DNA from: an uncultured Clostridium sp.
Lineage (GTDB): Bacteria; Bacillota; Clostridia; TANB77; CAG-508
Direction of reading: 5' to 3'
NCBI GenBank assembly: GCA_945946655.1
Contig: CAMEWM010000005.1
Location: forward strand, 903 to 64,902
DNA length: 64,000 bases
Made by a program: the position numbers and the translations under genes. The notes below the pieces were generated by a model. It saw nothing but the letters and a program-made list of their open reading frames with translations, was not told the origin of the DNA and ran no database searches. This document shows, piece after piece, positions 17,440 through 29,623 of the stretch (position 1 is its first letter; each line of letters begins with the position of its first letter).

Positions 17440-19206
17440 TTAATATCCAAAGTATCCATTAGTTACATATAAATTATATCTTGATCTTGCTAATGCTGTT
17501 AAATACCATTGTCTCAAATTTGTACCTCCAAGATTCTTTATATCAACTGAATTTCCATTCTTATCTTTTACCGTATTAGCAATTATGTCATCGGTACTAT
17601 ATGTCTCGGATACAGTTCCTATACAGTCATAGCAAGGAGTATATGCTTCAGGATAATAATATGCATAACTACCTGAATCTGTACCTAATAATTGACTATG
17701 TGCATTTGAATCTTCTCCTGTTATTGAAACAGTTTTTCTTTCAAATTCACTACTTGGATATGCTCCATTAATTGTTACAGAATTATTTTTTAGATTTTCT
17801 ATTAACTTTAAGCATCCCGGTTTATGATACTCTCCATTACTATCAATAATGTATATAGAGTCATTTCCTACAGTTTCCTGATTTGTGTTATTTGAAACAA
17901 TACAATAATTATTATACACTTTAGTTCCAATAGGAATTCCTTCTAAGAAGGTTAGCATGCATACATTGTTCTCTAATTTATACCACTCTGTCTCATCTAA
18001 TTGTGGCATTGAGAATTCATAGCCAATAACAGTATGATTAGTAAAAGTTGCAAGAGCAGACATCAAGTTTGTCTCTATTGATTTTCTTATTACATTCATT
18101 CTATGTTCATTAAATACAGAATCCGACTTTAGAGGATTATTAGTACTACTTATATCAAATATTTTTTCGTTCTTTATATCTGATGCAAAGGATATTTTAT
18201 TTCCATCTGTATCACGTGCATCGTCCGGAGTAATATCTTTTAAATAGTTAACTACCCAATCTGTAAAACTAATAGGATTGCCATTAAAGTCTGTTGTCAT
18301 ATTATCCAATGACTCAGCATAGTATTTTGTTGCACTATCACTATATAAGCATAATTGTCCATTAATTGTGATTAAATGATTATTCAAATATTCTATTGTT
18401 GCAACATCTGTTACATAGTCTTTTTTGTATTCACTACTATAGTAAAAATATCTTGTTCTTCCCTGTGCTCCTGTATCATTTATATCTCCAGAAAAAGCAT
18501 TTGGGTTGTTATCTTTATATATTTTTTGGCTATTATAAACTATATATTGAAATTTTTCCGTAGTGGGATTTACATTTACATCATCATTTAAAATTATTAA
18601 ATTCTCTTCTAACACTTCATTTGCAATAACATTTCTATCTACATCAGATAATAAATGTCCAGTCTTTACCACGTAATGTCCTTGAATTGTTCCTATTATA
18701 GTTATTGTATTATCTAATGTATAATTTACAACAAAATCAGTATTAGTACCTTTAACATATCTACAAGAATAATATATAAATGGTTTTAGACCATACCTGT
18801 ATCCTCCTTCGGCAACGTCATCTCCATCAGCATCATATTGTGTGTCAAAATAGTTAGAGTACACATAATATCCATCATATAAAGTAAATAATATTGCTGG
18901 CACATATGGCTTTAGATCTTCTTGACTATATCCAGAAGCGCCTAAATTAGTTGCAAGTGAACTAAAAAAAACATTAACGGACGCTTCTATATCTCTTATT
19001 TTAGAGTTTGAAATTGTAGAATACATATTATTTGCAGTATTTAGTTGAAATGCTTTAACTCCATCATAAGTGGCATTTATTAGAATATTATTATATTTTG
19101 TCTGATTCTCTATAGTTTTTATATGTGCATTAATATATGCTGATAATACTAATGATATTGGAACTATGATTATAACAAAAATTATAATTATATGTTGTAG
19201 TTTCAT
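17440..19206 (-). CDS. Large N-terminally anchored extracytoplasmic protein, last gene of the Tad-like cluster
   Basis: 588 aa. The TM anchor is MKLQHIIIIFVIIIVPISLVLSAY, followed by an Asn/Tyr/Thr-rich soluble part with scattered Cys. No family recognised. Confidence 0.65.
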   Translation of the reverse strand: MKLQHIIIIFVIIIVPISLVLSAYINAHIKTIENQTKYNNILINATYDGVKAFQLNTANNMYSTISNSKIRDIEASVNVFFSSLATNLGASGYSQEDLKPYVPAILFTLYDGYYVYSNYFDTQYDADGDDVAEGGYRYGLKPFIYYSCRYVKGTNTDFVVNYTLDNTITIIGTIQGHYVVKTGHLLSDVDRNVIANEVLEENLIILNDDVNVNPTTEKFQYIVYNSQKIYKDNNPNAFSGDINDTGAQGRTRYFYYSSEYKKDYVTDVATIEYLNNHLITINGQLCLYSDSATKYYAESLDNMTTDFNGNPISFTDWVVNYLKDITPDDARDTDGNKISFASDIKNEKIFDISSTNNPLKSDSVFNEHRMNVIRKSIETNLMSALATFTNHTVIGYEFSMPQLDETEWYKLENNVCMLTFLEGIPIGTKVYNNYCIVSNNTNQETVGNDSIYIIDSNGEYHKPGCLKLIENLKNNSVTINGAYPSSEFERKTVSITGEDSNAHSQLLGTDSGSYAYYYPEAYTPCYDCIGTVSETYSTDDIIANTVKDKNGNSVDIKNLGGTNLRQWYLTALARSRYNLYVTNGYFGY

Positions 19207-19287
19207 TATATTTTACCTTTCTATGAAAAAAGCAGCCTAGAACCAATTTTAAATAGTCCATAGAGCTGCCATAATTCTTATAAAAAT

Positions 19288-19821
19288 CTATTTTGTACCA
19301 TTTACAGTAACTATTCCTGCATGTTGTGCAGCAATTTGATATGTATCATTTCCTGCAATTCTGTACAAGAAATTTCTTAATATTTGAGCTATTGTAGTAT
19401 TAGTATTTTTTACTACAACAGAAAATCTATCTCCTTCTTTTAGGGTTAATCTATTGCTAGTTGAATCATTAGTTAAAATATTTTCTAACTGACTAGTATA
19501 TAGATTGTAATATACATTTTCCCCAATCTTCGTAGTTTCTGCTTGTGTAGTTTTTACTCCTGGATTTTCATCCAATATTTGAGCTTGCATTTCTACGTCA
19601 AAAGAGTTTCCTGTCGAAGTTATTGTTTGCATAAATTTATCATAATCATCTAATGTTAATTTACCTGTAGTCCTAACTTTATCTACAAATTCAGTAGTAG
19701 CTGTTTGTACTGATAATTGAGATACATCATCAGTTCTTTCAGAAATTGACATTAAAGGAAAAATAAACATTAGTATAGCTGCTAAAAATATTGCAATAAC
19801 TGTAATTAAACTATCTCCCAT
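19288..19821 (-). CDS. TM-anchored hypothetical protein of the Tad-like cluster (177 aa)
   Basis: The N-terminus MGDSLITVIAIFLAAILMFIFPL is followed by a Thr-rich soluble domain. Confidence 0.6.
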   Translation of the reverse strand: MGDSLITVIAIFLAAILMFIFPLMSISERTDDVSQLSVQTATTEFVDKVRTTGKLTLDDYDKFMQTITSTGNSFDVEMQAQILDENPGVKTTQAETTKIGENVYYNLYTSQLENILTNDSTSNRLTLKEGDRFSVVVKNTNTTIAQILRNFLYRIAGNDTYQIAAQHAGIVTVNGTK

Positions 19822-19862
19822 TTTTATATTTCCTTTCTATATTTATTTAATATACTATTTCT

Positions 19863-27679: not shown

Positions 27680-28375
27680 TTATACTCCTCTTTCTATTTG
27701 CTTATATGCTTTTTTTACTCCATATTGGTCATTACTTATATCTTGCGCCATATATATAAGAGCATCTCTAAAACCAGAGCTTAATCCTTTGAATTTTATT
27801 CTTGAAAGTCTTTGATTTTCCATCATTATATCTTGATCACTACTTTGTAGCGGAAAATATATTTTTTCATCCTGCCATTGTATTTTATATCCCAATGACA
27901 AAAAATTTAAATAATCGTCTTCAGCTTTAGACATTTGATTTGAAAAGTATACTTTTGTAAGGTTAAGTGGAACTTCAATTCCACTTAAAACCTCCAATCC
28001 TCTTTTTAATGAAAATAAATCTGAAGATGTAACAAAATAGTTTTTATTTGCATCATTTATTTCAAAGTTTGATAATAGTCTAGGATTATCTATATCTATA
28101 AAAATATAATCATATGGAAACACTGCTGATTCAGGCAAGCCCAAATATTGCTTTATTGCAGTATAATTCATAAATCCTACAGCAATATCTATATTTAAAT
28201 AATTTGTTACATATGTCATAGAATCATTATCTATTGCTGGTATAACGTATCTTGCTTTTTGATTGATAGTTGCATCAATGATTAATACTTTTTTTCCTGT
28301 TTCTACTAAAATTTTGGCAATATACATTATCATATCAGTTTTATCAAACGCACCAATAAAGTTTATTTTTTCCAT
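27680..28375 (-). CDS. Second ParA/MinD-like protein, P-loop not recognisable
   Basis: KINFIGAFDKTDMIMYIAKILVETGKKVLIIDAT and YDYIFIDIDN resemble a MinD/ParA fold lacking GKT/S. Confidence 0.45.
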   Translation of the reverse strand: MEKINFIGAFDKTDMIMYIAKILVETGKKVLIIDATINQKARYVIPAIDNDSMTYVTNYLNIDIAVGFMNYTAIKQYLGLPESAVFPYDYIFIDIDNPRLLSNFEINDANKNYFVTSSDLFSLKRGLEVLSGIEVPLNLTKVYFSNQMSKAEDDYLNFLSLGYKIQWQDEKIYFPLQSSDQDIMMENQRLSRIKFKGLSSGFRDALIYMAQDISNDQYGVKKAYKQIERGV

Positions 28376-28397
28376 TGTCTCCTCCTAGAGCTATTTA

Positions 28398-29474
28398 TTA
28401 GTTATTTCCTGCTAAAGCGTCCAAATAAGATTGTCTTTGTTCTTGTGCTGTTGATACTTCTTTCTTTACTCCACTAGAAATGTTAGATTGAGCATCATCA
28501 AAATCAACTGCATTTTTTGAATTATTTATATAATCTCTTACAGTATTATTAGTATTGTATCTAGTTAGTAACTCTCTCTTCGCAGTTTCAACAATATTAG
28601 GATCATTATCTCTCATTAGAGTTTGTACTTCTGCACTTGGAACATATGTTGGAGTTGCTTTTTCTTGTGTTCCTGGCTCCACATATTTCGTTGTATAAAG
28701 AAGTGATCCTTCAACTATATAATTTTCAACTATGGCATTACTCATTGCAAGAATTTCATCTTCAGTTAATTTTACCCATATTGTATTTACTGAATCTACG
28801 CCTTCTATCTGAGGTATTTCTACCTTTTTCTTTGAAACTACTATATAGTCTAACCCTGATGGTAATCTAAATCTAATATCAATATAATCATCTGGTGCTA
28901 TTTGGCTCGCTAATTGTAACATATTGTATTCTTGAATTCTTAAATCATTTGTCGTTTTTTCATCAGATTTAACTAACATTGAAGAAGTAACTACTGTATT
29001 AGCTTTCATATCAATCTTTGCTATTAATGGTGGTGTTGAAAGTTCAATATATTCTTTTTGGCGATTAGCTTCTATATAATAGAATCCTGTATTTTCTTCT
29101 GTTTTCAATTCTATATTCTGTCCGTCCCTTTGTAAATATGTTTTTCCATCACTTGTTACTACAGGATTTCCACTTTTATCCTCTAAAAAATAGTTCTCCA
29201 AATTAGTTATACTTGATGTTCCATTTGCTGGTACTGTACTTTTATCTACTTCTTTTGTTGTAATCATATCTCCAGTTATTATTTGCCCAGATGTAACATC
29301 AAATTTTAATACGCATACTTTAACTGTATTTGCAAGTCTTTTATCCTCTTCCTCTTGCATTTTCTTTAATTGAACTAATAAAACTGCAACTATCATTGCC
29401 ATAATTACAAATGTTATTAGTACTCCCAAAATAAATGAATTTCTTGCTTTTTTTTGCATTGGATTTGTAGCCAT
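28398..29474 (-). CDS. CpaB/RcpC-like Flp pilus assembly protein (TM anchor + SAF domain)
   Basis: The start is at MATNPMQKKARNS after AGGAGG. The TM helix is ILGVLITFVIMAMIVAVLLV and the SAF-like region is VKVCVLKFDVTSGQIITGDMITTKEVDKSTVPANG. The C-terminal RcpC-like region is DDYIDIRFRL...WVKLTEDEILAMSNAI. Confidence 0.7.
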   Translation of the reverse strand: MATNPMQKKARNSFILGVLITFVIMAMIVAVLLVQLKKMQEEEDKRLANTVKVCVLKFDVTSGQIITGDMITTKEVDKSTVPANGTSSITNLENYFLEDKSGNPVVTSDGKTYLQRDGQNIELKTEENTGFYYIEANRQKEYIELSTPPLIAKIDMKANTVVTSSMLVKSDEKTTNDLRIQEYNMLQLASQIAPDDYIDIRFRLPSGLDYIVVSKKKVEIPQIEGVDSVNTIWVKLTEDEILAMSNAIVENYIVEGSLLYTTKYVEPGTQEKATPTYVPSAEVQTLMRDNDPNIVETAKRELLTRYNTNNTVRDYINNSKNAVDFDDAQSNISSGVKKEVSTAQEQRQSYLDALAGNN

Positions 29475-29623
29475 ACCTTTTTTCCTCCTATATGTCAATA
29501 TTTTGACAAAATTATTACTTATATAATTGTACAACAAAATACTTCTAAAAACAATAAATTTCGTATCTTGTAATTTAAGTTTAACGCTTTTGTAATATTA
29601 TTGTAATAAAATTACAAAATAAA

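Follow-up and report, generated by a model that had tools for sequence, protein, structure and literature searches.

What is encoded by a block of genes that has the layout of a pilus assembly locus and contains no recognisable pilin? We studied this question in a window of 64,000 nucleotides from an uncultured Clostridium sp. (contig CAMEWM010000005.1), where the minus strand carries 12 genes between positions 17440 and 29537, all in one direction and forming one module; all coordinates below are window positions on this strand. The original prediction allowed for twelve or thirteen co-oriented genes. Twelve stand, and the supposed thirteenth is a 48-aa fragment ORF that belongs to the first of the small subunit-like genes, as described below. 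The upstream edge is marked by an intrinsic-terminator-like hairpin (29622..29661) that ends the upstream DUF2651-like gene: a perfect A/U-rich 16-bp stem followed by a U-run, with a folding energy of -16.5 kcal/mol (z = -4.56; none of 200 shuffles folds equally well), so the strong terminator anticipated at this place is real. The downstream neighbor is CmpB (PF06541, E = 2e-45), again as anticipated; the flanks of the cluster in the window consist of housekeeping genes, namely TruA, CdaA, a PBP5-type carboxypeptidase, VanW and CmpB.

A survey of co-occurrence in related genomes, one of the checks proposed with the original prediction, found the gene set syntenic in every one of 80 loci from metagenome-assembled genomes of uncultured gut and rumen Clostridia: the order of the 12 genes is identical in all of them, as far as the contigs reach. 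The flanking genes differ between species, and the only families that recur across the 80 loci are the 12 of the cluster itself. Because the order is fixed while the flanks change, the 12-gene block is more than a chance arrangement.

The cluster is not new, although the original prediction implied that it was. It is the conserved pilus gene cluster of the order TANB77, genes 927–938 of Kim et al. (Nat Commun 2024;15:10726; PMC11680825), who read it as a Tad-like pilus and found it in 122 of 129 TANB77 species with its order kept and protein sizes near-identical; across the whole order, 95% of the species carry it as a single copy. They assigned the genes as CpaB, TadZ, CpaE, TadA/CpaF, a fused TadC/TadB-like platform and seven pilin-like proteins, with sizes of 358/231/280/640/693/165/170/143/146/237/178/621 aa. 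With corrected starts, the sizes in the window are 358/231/279/639/674/160/170/145/142/232/177/588 aa. Host type (low-GC uncultured gut Clostridia), gene number and gene order also agree. Apart from details such as the platform (674 aa instead of 693) and a split in the window's first pilin-like gene, the window cluster is an ortholog of the published one with no essential difference. Leader peptides, a prepilin peptidase and plasmid homologs are not discussed in that paper, and our analysis goes beyond it in two points: the leaderless starts of the subunits and the existence of homologs on plasmids.

We searched all 12 proteins against Pfam, NCBIfam and PHROG models, and none reaches the cut-off of any model, including those for Flp, TadE and the A24 peptidase. 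Below the cut-offs, the upstream half still has the character of a divergent Tad or type IV filament machine, as originally proposed. Gene 927 (28398..29537), annotated at 379 aa, encodes one transmembrane helix and a SAF-like stretch. The proposed likeness to CpaB/RcpC is borne out by weak signals: 20.4 bits to SAF (PF08666; cut-off 21), E = 4.6e-6 to the CpaB model TIGR03177 (26 bits; cut-off 71) and an hhalign match to CpaB (P = 0.0016 over 28 columns). Its plasmid orthologs are annotated as SAF domain-containing proteins. The assumed TTG start has no preceding ribosome binding site (RBS), and the true start is most likely M22 (position 29474), giving 358 aa.

The next two genes encode the two ParA/MinD-like proteins that had been placed at the TadZ/CpaE position. 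The first (gene 928, 27680..28375, 231 aa) is found in 80 of the 80 loci; it has a degenerate P-loop (GAFDKTDM), a faint AAA_31 match and an hhalign match to its neighbor (P = 4e-4), and Kim et al. report structural homology to TadZ. This neighbor, ParA279 (gene 929, 26839..27678, 279 aa), also has a degenerate P-loop; it aligns to canonical CpaE by hhalign (probability 86%, P = 4.8e-6, 201 columns) and has CbiA and eps_fam matches below threshold. The ATPase (gene 930, 24895..26832, annotated at 645 aa) has an N-terminal transmembrane helix and a family-specific N-domain of about 270 aa. Its assignment to the CpaF/TadA type is supported by its nearest PDB relatives, which are CpaF structures (8rkd, 9e24; E = 6e-10; residues 276–545), CpaF being its sole relative of solved structure. 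Its start needs correcting, most likely to M7 (position 26814; 639 aa). It scores 24.5 bits against T2SSE (cut-off 24.9), its Walker A residues G389-K390 and E415, E457 and H483 are invariant among 46 diverse homologs, and it has 376 homolog clusters (50% identity) at E ≤ 1e-30.

The presumed platform (gene 931, 22783..24807) is a polytopic membrane protein of 674 aa at the TadB/TadC position. Neither its own sequence nor 10 diverse orthologs match any Pfam model, T2SSF included, and a 49-sequence profile finds no PDB sequence match. Residues 494–657 align with the T2SSF region of TadB/TadC in a weak, co-linear way (hhalign P = 0.0016–0.0028). Our AF2 model has a pLDDT of 53, too poor for fold comparison; Kim et al., using AF2 and Foldseek, found that the two halves of the protein resemble TadC and TadB.

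The downstream half contains the four paralogs beginning MENA[STV][KE]AL at the sizes originally listed, together with three other membrane-anchored proteins. The first paralog (gene 932, 22269..22751, 160 aa, MENATKAL) has an in-frame stop 6 nt upstream and an RBS, and is shorter than most of its orthologs (median 224 aa). Its C-terminal module, 'FKCT..EY..tGR..F.E', lies detached in a different reading frame as the 48-aa ORF (22091..22237): tblastn places residues 1–157 of the L003 protein in frame 1 and residues 170–210 in frame 2, and the same split is seen in locus L001. By phmmer the 48-aa ORF matches the C-termini of 60 orthologs from the 160-, 145- and 170-aa families. The second paralog (gene 933, 21561..22073, 170 aa, MENASKAL; stop 15 nt upstream, GGAGGAG RBS) has its N-terminus in common with the 142-aa protein. 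Gene 934 (21069..21506) encodes a transmembrane or signal-anchored protein whose length of 145 aa and C-terminal module common to the 160- and 170-aa families agree with the original prediction, except that the BLASTP link to the 170-aa protein extends over only 29 residues (E = 0.008). This family is present in 62 loci, and phmmer with the 48-aa module locates it in most loci.

The candidate major subunit is the 142-aa protein (gene 935, 20576..21004, MENASKAL), which has a strong RBS (AAGGAGGA). It has 6,965 homolog clusters, none with a Pfam domain or a name, and occurs in 2–7 tandem copies in some loci. Its AF2 model (pLDDT 86.8) consists of a helix (residues 2–36), a low-confidence linker and an alpha/beta domain, and unlike in classical type IV pilins the N-terminal helix is not packed on the beta-sheet. 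In a Foldseek comparison with the PDB, which takes up the structural comparison first proposed, this model had no significant match, to pilins or otherwise (best E = 2.8). The fourth paralog (gene 936, 19863..20561, 232 aa, MENAVEAL; stop 6 nt upstream) is present in 62 loci. Next comes a 177-aa protein (gene 937, 19288..19821, MGDSLITV) with one transmembrane helix at the TadE/TadF position; TANB77 and plasmid orthologs alike keep its N-terminus, M[GSE]D[ST]L, together with an 'ER.DD.S' motif, and a TadE signal is absent by Pfam and hhalign. The last gene (938, 17440..19206) encodes a 588-aa protein with an N-terminal transmembrane helix at the TadG position and no Pfam match. Its orthologs range from 321 to 1,239 aa, with plasmid versions of only 321–353 aa; Kim et al. 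found that its N-terminal quarter resembles TadE/PilV.

No subunit of the cluster matches a known pilin family (Flp, TadE, TadG, N-methyl and other Pfam/NCBIfam pilins, or by hhalign), and the claim that no pilin class or leader can be recognised holds at the level of the genes too. Each MENA-type start is preceded by a GGAGG-type RBS and by an in-frame stop 6–27 nt upstream; across loci the median distance from subunit genes to the upstream stop is 12–24 nt, with an RBS-like motif in 86–98%. Start codons and close upstream stops leave no room for a leader, and an N-terminal extension is absent from all 48 homologs aligned with the 142-aa protein. Judged by these gene starts, the pilin-like proteins begin directly at Met-Glu-Asn-Ala, without a leader peptide. 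Their first 28 residues have majority-residue frequencies of 0.66–0.78, compared to 0.37–0.42 in the remainder and 0.82 in the ATPase, and the common N-terminus is kept in four paralogs across 80 species. The conserved acidic residue sits at position 2 instead of 5, and some plasmid homologs (e.g. MSTNASKAL) lack it. An A24 peptidase is absent, as had been noted, from the window and from within 10 kb of the cluster in the 80 loci; one may be encoded elsewhere in the genome.

Compared to canonical Tad/Flp (type IVc) systems such as Caulobacter Cpa and the Azospirillum p3 tad locus (L085), the cluster has the same CpaF-family ATPase, CpaE/TadZ-like ParA protein and CpaB-like SAF protein, in an order that parallels cpaB ... 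tadZ-tadA-tadB-tadC ... tadE-tadF-tadG. Unlike them, it has no Flp pilin (50–70 aa, G/XXXXEY), TadE/TadF/TadG signatures or TadV; its subunits are leaderless proteins of 142–232 aa with globular heads; its platform is a single protein; its ATPase carries the extra helix and N-domain; and it has two ParA-like genes, both degenerate. A secretin is absent, as expected in a monoderm. The Tad locus of Bifidobacterium breve UCC2003 (tadZ-tadA-tadB-tadC-flp-tadE-tadF, with tadV elsewhere) similarly belongs to a monoderm; it lacks a secretin, its pilin genes follow those for the platform and its peptidase is encoded outside the locus, but its subunits are bona fide Flp and TadE proteins whose leaders are processed by TadV.

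Complete homologous clusters are present on 35 Bacillota plasmid records, some from cultivable Lysinibacillus, Paenibacillus and Clostridium hosts. Megaplasmid examples are Thermobacillus pTHECO01, Lysinibacillus pBsph, Alkalihalophilus pBpOF4-01 and Clostridium argentinense pRSJ17_1, with others in Paenibacillus and Butyrivibrio; these clusters are annotated as Tad-like and, to our knowledge, uncharacterised. In sequence and gene order the homology is genuine and extends to all of the module: ATPase identity to the window's protein is 41–57% across more than 90% of the length, platform identity is 23–41%, and the SAF protein, both ParA-like proteins, the 177- and 588-aa protein orthologs and leaderless small transmembrane proteins (MSTNASKAL, MDSVTKAI, MESPVVKAI) are all in place. 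The plasmid clusters differ from the chromosomal TANB77 type in having one or two small subunits rather than five or six, an additional 475–500-aa gene upstream and, downstream, an SLH or CWB protein followed by a DUF5704-type giant. Three of four inspected plasmids also have a GGDEF gene, and two of those an HD gene, a linkage that points to adhesion or biofilm control.

We think that the cluster probably encodes a monoderm Tad-like (type IVc-like) filament machine with leaderless subunits in an uncultured order. The CpaF-like ATPase, as a membrane-anchored hexamer, would drive the large platform standing in for TadB and TadC, the two catalytically degenerate ParA/MinD-fold proteins would position the machine, and the SAF protein would form an extracytoplasmic collar. 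Its substrates would be the small membrane proteins, four to six in number and in N-in/C-out orientation, each with a near-invariant M-[E/D]-N-A-x-x-A-L and about 22 hydrophobic residues ahead of a variable alpha/beta head; they would be extracted from the membrane and stacked via their N-terminal helices. In this proposed mechanism a prepilin peptidase step would be unneeded because the subunits start at the conserved motif. The 142-aa protein would be the major subunit, and the 160-, 170-, 232-, 177- and 588-aa proteins minor or tip subunits.

What speaks against a filament is that neither fibres nor a processing state of the subunits nor a dependence on the ATPase has been seen in any organism, here or in the literature. 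This would suit a short pseudopilus or piston, like those of T2SS or Com, that exports or displays proteins (the 588-aa protein, or the SLH and DUF5704 giants on plasmids) instead of a long adhesive pilus. The plasmid clusters are always followed by a cell-wall-binding (SLH/CWB) protein and a DUF5704-type protein of 960–1,200 aa that has a signal-like segment at its N-terminus, and the last cluster gene varies in length as cargo or adhesins do. However, SLH and DUF5704 genes are absent from the TANB77 loci, and the tandem amplification and hypervariable head of the 142-aa protein are what one expects of a major subunit that is abundant, exposed and antigenically varying; we regard the piston as rather unlikely.

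We consider it quite improbable that 'leaderless pilin' is a misreading of proteins that are signal-anchored, Sec-secreted or trimmed by an unrecognised protease, and are not assembled via their N-terminal helices. The 142-aa protein does have an A-x-A-like site (AAGA|M, residues 31–35) after its hydrophobic segment, where the AF2 model has its flexible linker; the predictor used by Kim et al. labels 934 a signal peptide; and a pilin fold match is lacking. But a cleaved signal peptide would not be the most conserved part of a protein, and in the 48 homologs residues 1–24 are invariant or close to it and the remainder variable. The hydrophobic stretch of about 22 residues has transmembrane length, and the proteins are strictly co-inherited with the CpaF-like ATPase.

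A DNA-transfer appendage (mating-pair- or aggregate-forming, cf. the IncI thin type IV pilus), with the TANB77 copy a domesticated or integrated remnant, would fit the plasmid location, the type IV coupling protein and relaxase-family genes about 4–8 kb from the pTHECO01 cluster, the VirB4, VirB6 and VirD4 homologs on pBsph (pBsph-like plasmids are reported to be conjugative) and the ATPase's best NCBIfam match ('conjugal transfer-associated' TadA, TIGR03819, well below threshold), but it is very unlikely given that MOB-suite types 35 of 35 plasmids as non-mobilizable, that GGDEF and HD genes accompany the plasmid clusters, that the window flanks are housekeeping, that only the 12 cluster families recur in the 80 loci (a count of recurring families rather than a targeted search of the changing flanks for coupling proteins, VirB4 or relaxases) and that the single-copy state in 95% of the order's species indicates vertical inheritance.

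With the cluster itself already published, the residual interest is moderate and lies in a possible peptidase-independent class of pilins. For TANB77, the filament machine that we favor would likely serve in gut adhesion or aggregation, and its exposed subunits would be seen by the host; recombinant pilin 938 activates dendritic cells via TLR4 (Kim et al.).

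Twelve ORFs, all on the minus strand, form a compact block at positions 17440-29537 of the window. The first encodes a 379-aa protein that has a single transmembrane (TM) helix and resembles SAF/CpaB proteins weakly. The others encode ParA231 and ParA279, two ParA/MinD-like proteins (231 and 279 aa) with degenerate P-loops; a 645-aa homolog of secretion ATPases with a TM helix at its N-terminus; a 674-aa polytopic membrane protein (22783-24807, minus strand), which we call the platform protein; the four MENA proteins (160, 170, 142 and 232 aa), in which an initial MENA[STV][KE]AL leads into a hydrophobic helix; and TM-anchored proteins of 145, 177 and 588 aa. 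The probable starts of two genes are internal: M22, at 29474, in the first (CpaB-like) gene, giving 358 aa, and M7, at 26814, in the ATPase gene, giving 639 aa.

This gene set is already known. Kim et al. (Nat Commun 2024;15:10726; PMC11680825) described 10-14 conserved genes, present in single copy in 122 of 129 TANB77 species, in which genes 927-938 encode proteins of 358/231/280/640/693/165/170/143/146/237/178/621 aa. Our genes match 927-938 one for one, in the same fixed order of twelve and in size once the two starts are corrected, so the window locus is an ortholog of the described TANB77 system. Using eggNOG, InterPro, DeepTMHMM and AF2 with Foldseek, those authors assigned CpaB, TadZ, CpaE, TadA/CpaF and a protein with TadC- and TadB-like halves, and named 932-938 'pilin-like', the N-terminal quarter of 938 being partly TadE/PilV-like. 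Their data include no filament, and leader, prepilin, peptidase and TadV are never mentioned in that paper. The original prediction of a Tad-like or type-IV-filament-like block in this DNA is therefore supported in both observation and interpretation, yet the finding is not new.

The block has housekeeping genes on both sides. Those upstream encode a DUF2651-like protein, TruA and CdaA, and those downstream CmpB, a PBP5-type carboxypeptidase and VanW. A strong terminator had been proposed upstream of the block, and there is indeed a hairpin at 29622-29661 with a 16-bp stem and a U-run (z = -4.6). The G+C content of the DNA is about 28%, and in such AT-rich DNA a promoter scan was uninformative (96 sites observed, 96 expected). 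The DUF2651-like gene upstream of the cluster (29682-30158, minus strand) encodes a membrane protein whose C-terminal tail is very rich in Asn, Asp and Cys (NNDNDNDDDNNENDNNDNCNECAYNCNNNCNNKSNCCCHNRNRCCNRKCRR). Opposite the point where the ATPase and ParA279 genes meet, the plus strand has a 174-aa ORF (26783-27307); its product is low-complexity and hydrophobic, and the ORF is most likely a spurious result of the AT-rich composition.

By scanning species-representative genomes with a 12-sequence ATPase alignment as seed, we found at least 300 confirmed relatives, and analysed the best 80 loci. All 80 are in metagenome-assembled genomes of uncultured gut or rumen Clostridia, including Candidatus Merdicola and Clostridium sp. 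CAG:389. In the survey of co-occurrence that had been proposed, the 12 families occur together, in identical order in 80 of 80 loci as far as each contig reaches, and the window's flanking genes recur in just three of them. The block is thus conserved regardless of its flanks, as is the TANB77 cluster of Kim et al. The machine proteins are strongly conserved (the majority-residue frequency of the ATPase is 0.82). In the MENA proteins this frequency is 0.66-0.78 over the first 28 residues and only 0.37-0.42 beyond. Homologs of the 142-aa protein form 6,965 clusters at 90% identity, without a Pfam domain or a name, and its residues 1-24 are invariant or nearly so among 48 homologs. One divergent relative (locus L065, ATPase 68% identical) has seven tandem genes of the 142-aa type and one MEDAAKAI gene at positions 13079-17001 of that locus, an array that looks like a subunit-variation cassette.

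None of the 12 cluster proteins reached the curated cut-offs of Pfam, NCBIfam or PHROG models. The nearest approaches in these HMM searches were the ATPase against T2SSE (PF00437; 24.5 bits, cut-off 24.9) and the CpaB-like protein against SAF (20.4 bits, cut-off 21), all of whose matches are below curated cut-offs. PF00437 is, though, precomputed in nearly all close homologs of the ATPase. That this protein is a CpaF/TadA-type ATPase is also borne out by its solved relatives, which by sequence are Caulobacter CpaF entries only (PDB, E-value 6e-10, residues 276-545), and by its catalytic residues: G389-K390, E415, E457 and H483 are invariant in 46 homologs with 30-47% identity. An exhaustive search found 1,481 representatives with E-values up to 1e-3, of which 376 reach E <= 1e-30, with many full-length proteins of about 620 aa among the best 150 homologs listed. 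The group is a distinct subfamily with a TM helix and an N-domain of about 270 aa.

For the other machine proteins we made hhalign comparisons to proteins encoded by four canonical tad loci of proteobacterial plasmids. Both ParA-like proteins had been placed at the TadZ/CpaE position; this holds directly for ParA279, which matches CpaE with 86% probability (P = 4.8e-6, 201 columns), and for ParA231 by way of its relationship to ParA279 (P = 4e-4). Homology to the Tad machine is thus shown for the ATPase and one ParA-like protein. The match of the CpaB-like protein to CpaB covers 28 columns only. In the platform protein, residues 494-657 are co-linear with the T2SSF region of TadB/TadC, weakly (P of about 0.002), and the N-terminal part is weaker still (P = 0.026). 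We found no T2SSF domain (PF00482) or other true Pfam match in 11 platform orthologs, only scattered chance matches when ten diverse orthologs were compared to Pfam at E-values up to 1, no match of the platform profile to PDB sequences at E-values up to 10, and no internal repeat between its N- and C-terminal halves (P = 0.1). An AF2 model from alignment rows that are 82-94% identical had a pLDDT of 52.9, and its Foldseek matches are meaningless. Because the protein is invisible to Pfam and PDB searches and the model is unusable, its T2SSF assignment comes from the weak hhalign alignments and the published Foldseek result, which together suggest a TadB/TadC-like platform. The window's copy, of 674 aa, starts with MLIVIAYVAL, 27 nt after an in-frame stop. 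Most orthologs are larger (686-693 aa), and their N-terminal TM helix is longer. The identical 674-aa protein is present on 48 contigs, so this is a feature of the lineage and not an assembly error.

The gene order of the cluster parallels the canonical Tad/Flp order, cpaB ... cpaE-cpaF-tadB-tadC ... tadE-tadF-tadG, but the subunits do not. A Tad/Flp system has TadE/TadF/TadG pseudopilins and a Flp pilin, a protein of 50-70 aa that carries a leader and the motif G/XXXXEY; as had been claimed, the cluster contains neither. There was no match to PF04964 or related models among the cluster proteins and no hhalign signal to Flp, and the sole small ORF in the one large intergenic gap (195 nt) is a detached module fragment. 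TadE/TadF/TadG (PF07811, PF13400) likewise had no Pfam match in the cluster, the 177-, 588- and 145-aa and MENA families gave hhalign P-values of 0.05 or worse to TadE/TadG, and a Pfam comparison of ten diverse pilin-like proteins at E-values up to 1 yielded nothing beyond scattered chance matches.

Prepilin leaders are also absent at the level of the DNA. Each of the four MENA starts in the window follows a GGAGG-type ribosome-binding site and has an in-frame stop close upstream, at distances of 6, 15, 27 and 6 nt. Across the 80 loci the median distance from start to upstream stop is 12-24 nt, a motif resembling a ribosome-binding site is found ahead of 86-98% of subunit genes, and an upstream start is possible in just 18 of about 330 genes, the resulting extensions being unrelated to one another. 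Type IV pilins are made with a short basic leader, its last residue Gly or Ala, which an A24 peptidase removes, and they have a Glu at +5; the MENA proteins have no such leader, and their conserved acid is at position 2. The 177-aa family has a conserved start of its own, M-[G/S/E]-D-[S/T]-L. An A24 peptidase had been reported missing in or next to the cluster. Our search, made with a TadV HMM built from two sequences and with the GxGDxK motif in membrane contexts, has low sensitivity; it covered the whole 64-kb window and, in the 80 loci, the DNA up to 10 kb from the cluster, and gave no candidate.

What the MENA families do share with type IV pilins is a conserved hydrophobic N-terminal helix common to the subunits and a variable C-terminal head. 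Such extreme conservation would not be expected of a Sec signal peptide that is discarded, and the N-terminal segment may form the core of an assembly, presumably a filament, with the 142-aa protein as the candidate major subunit. The AF2 monomer of this protein (pLDDT 86.8) has a helix at residues 2-36, a low-confidence linker, a helix-strand-helix unit and three strands. A structural comparison had been suggested as a check for a known pilin fold; the best Foldseek match in the PDB has an E-value of 2.8, so no fold can be assigned.

The first MENA gene (22091-22751, minus strand) appears to be split. Its 160-aa product is short relative to an ortholog median of 224 aa, and the C-terminal module that it lacks ('FKCTKIEYYNDTGRVKYMEF') is encoded whole by a 48-aa ORF just downstream, in a different frame. 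The gene is divided likewise in a related species (locus L001, about 6295-7000; ATPase 93% identical), where the module is again conserved in an open frame. This suits recoding, or a split that is maintained, better than a decaying pseudogene.

We know of no report that these subunits are leaderless and fit no pilin class. The two features make a type IV-like filament that is independent of a peptidase a real possibility. We suggest tentatively, at rather less than even confidence, that the M-[E/D]-N-A proteins are a new leaderless class of type-IV-filament subunit, which a CpaF-like machine would polymerise without a prepilin peptidase step.

Homologs also exist outside TANB77. By tblastn searches of plasmid records with the ATPase and the platform protein, we found complete homologous clusters on 35 records: 11 from Paenibacillus, nine from Clostridium (argentinense, botulinum, beijerinckii), eight from Lysinibacillus, two from Butyrivibrio, and one each from Thermobacillus, Alkalihalophilus, Cytobacillus, Sporosarcina and Cohnella. 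On the four plasmids that we inspected the order is a SAF protein, two ParA-like proteins, the ATPase, a membrane protein of 673-690 aa, one or two small TM proteins (starting MSTNASKAL, MDSVTKAI, MESPVVKAI or MDSPVVKK), a 177-like and a 588-like protein. These are followed (L081 19039-25761; L082 15566-19939; L083 19331-24955; L084 18842-25355) by an SLH or cell-wall-binding (CWB-repeat) protein and a DUF5704-type protein of 960-1,200 aa, then by a GGDEF diguanylate cyclase gene on three of the four and an HD-domain phosphohydrolase on two, which hints at c-di-GMP control of the plasmid appendage. From these gene links, together with those to the transfer-type genes described next, we infer a biological role: they suggest adhesion or aggregation, and possibly an aid to mating on plasmids.

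Some plasmids do carry transfer-type genes, as a conjugative type IV secretion system would require. Thermobacillus composti pTHECO01 (L081), typed as non-mobilizable by MOB-suite, has a type IV coupling protein and 'replication-relaxation family' genes about 4-8 kb upstream of the Tad-like cluster (L081 1-4570), and pBsph, whose relatives are reported as conjugative, has separate VirB4, VirB6 and VirD4 homologs. These genes are located outside the homologous module. A conjugative system combines VirB4, a coupling protein and a relaxase in one module, whereas the 80 loci share only the 12 genes, and we found no match to these three families in the 12 cluster products or the eight flanking products scanned. 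The TANB77 copies are chromosomal with housekeeping flanks, and since the window copy has such flanks and no transfer genes, we reject for it the conjugative reading that had been raised as a possible refutation. A phage origin is rejected because PHROGs gave nothing relevant.

To our knowledge, prepilin-peptidase processing is treated as a defining step of all type IV filaments, and a Tad-like system with leaderless subunits would be an exception worth testing. If the peptidase-independent reading is true, this would be the first lineage in the type IV filament superfamily that does without processing of class III signal peptides, spread over a whole gut-bacterial order and megaplasmids of cultivable Bacillota, including botulinum-toxin plasmids. 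We know of no report of cultivable hosts that carry the system, and the wider distribution is absent from PMC11680825. TANB77 itself is uncultured; ordinary genetics and electron microscopy are feasible in cultivable hosts with complete plasmid clusters, such as Lysinibacillus sphaericus (pBsph), Paenibacillus polymyxa M1, Alkalihalophilus pseudofirmus OF4 and Butyrivibrio proteoclasticus B316. TANB77 is a gut clade linked to immune-checkpoint therapy response, and the recombinant form of 938 both activated dendritic cells, by way of TLR4, and made anti-PD-1 treatment of mice more effective (PMC11680825). Because the cluster is an order-wide signature of TANB77 and 938 has this TLR4 activity, what the machine builds bears on a medically interesting host-microbe interaction.
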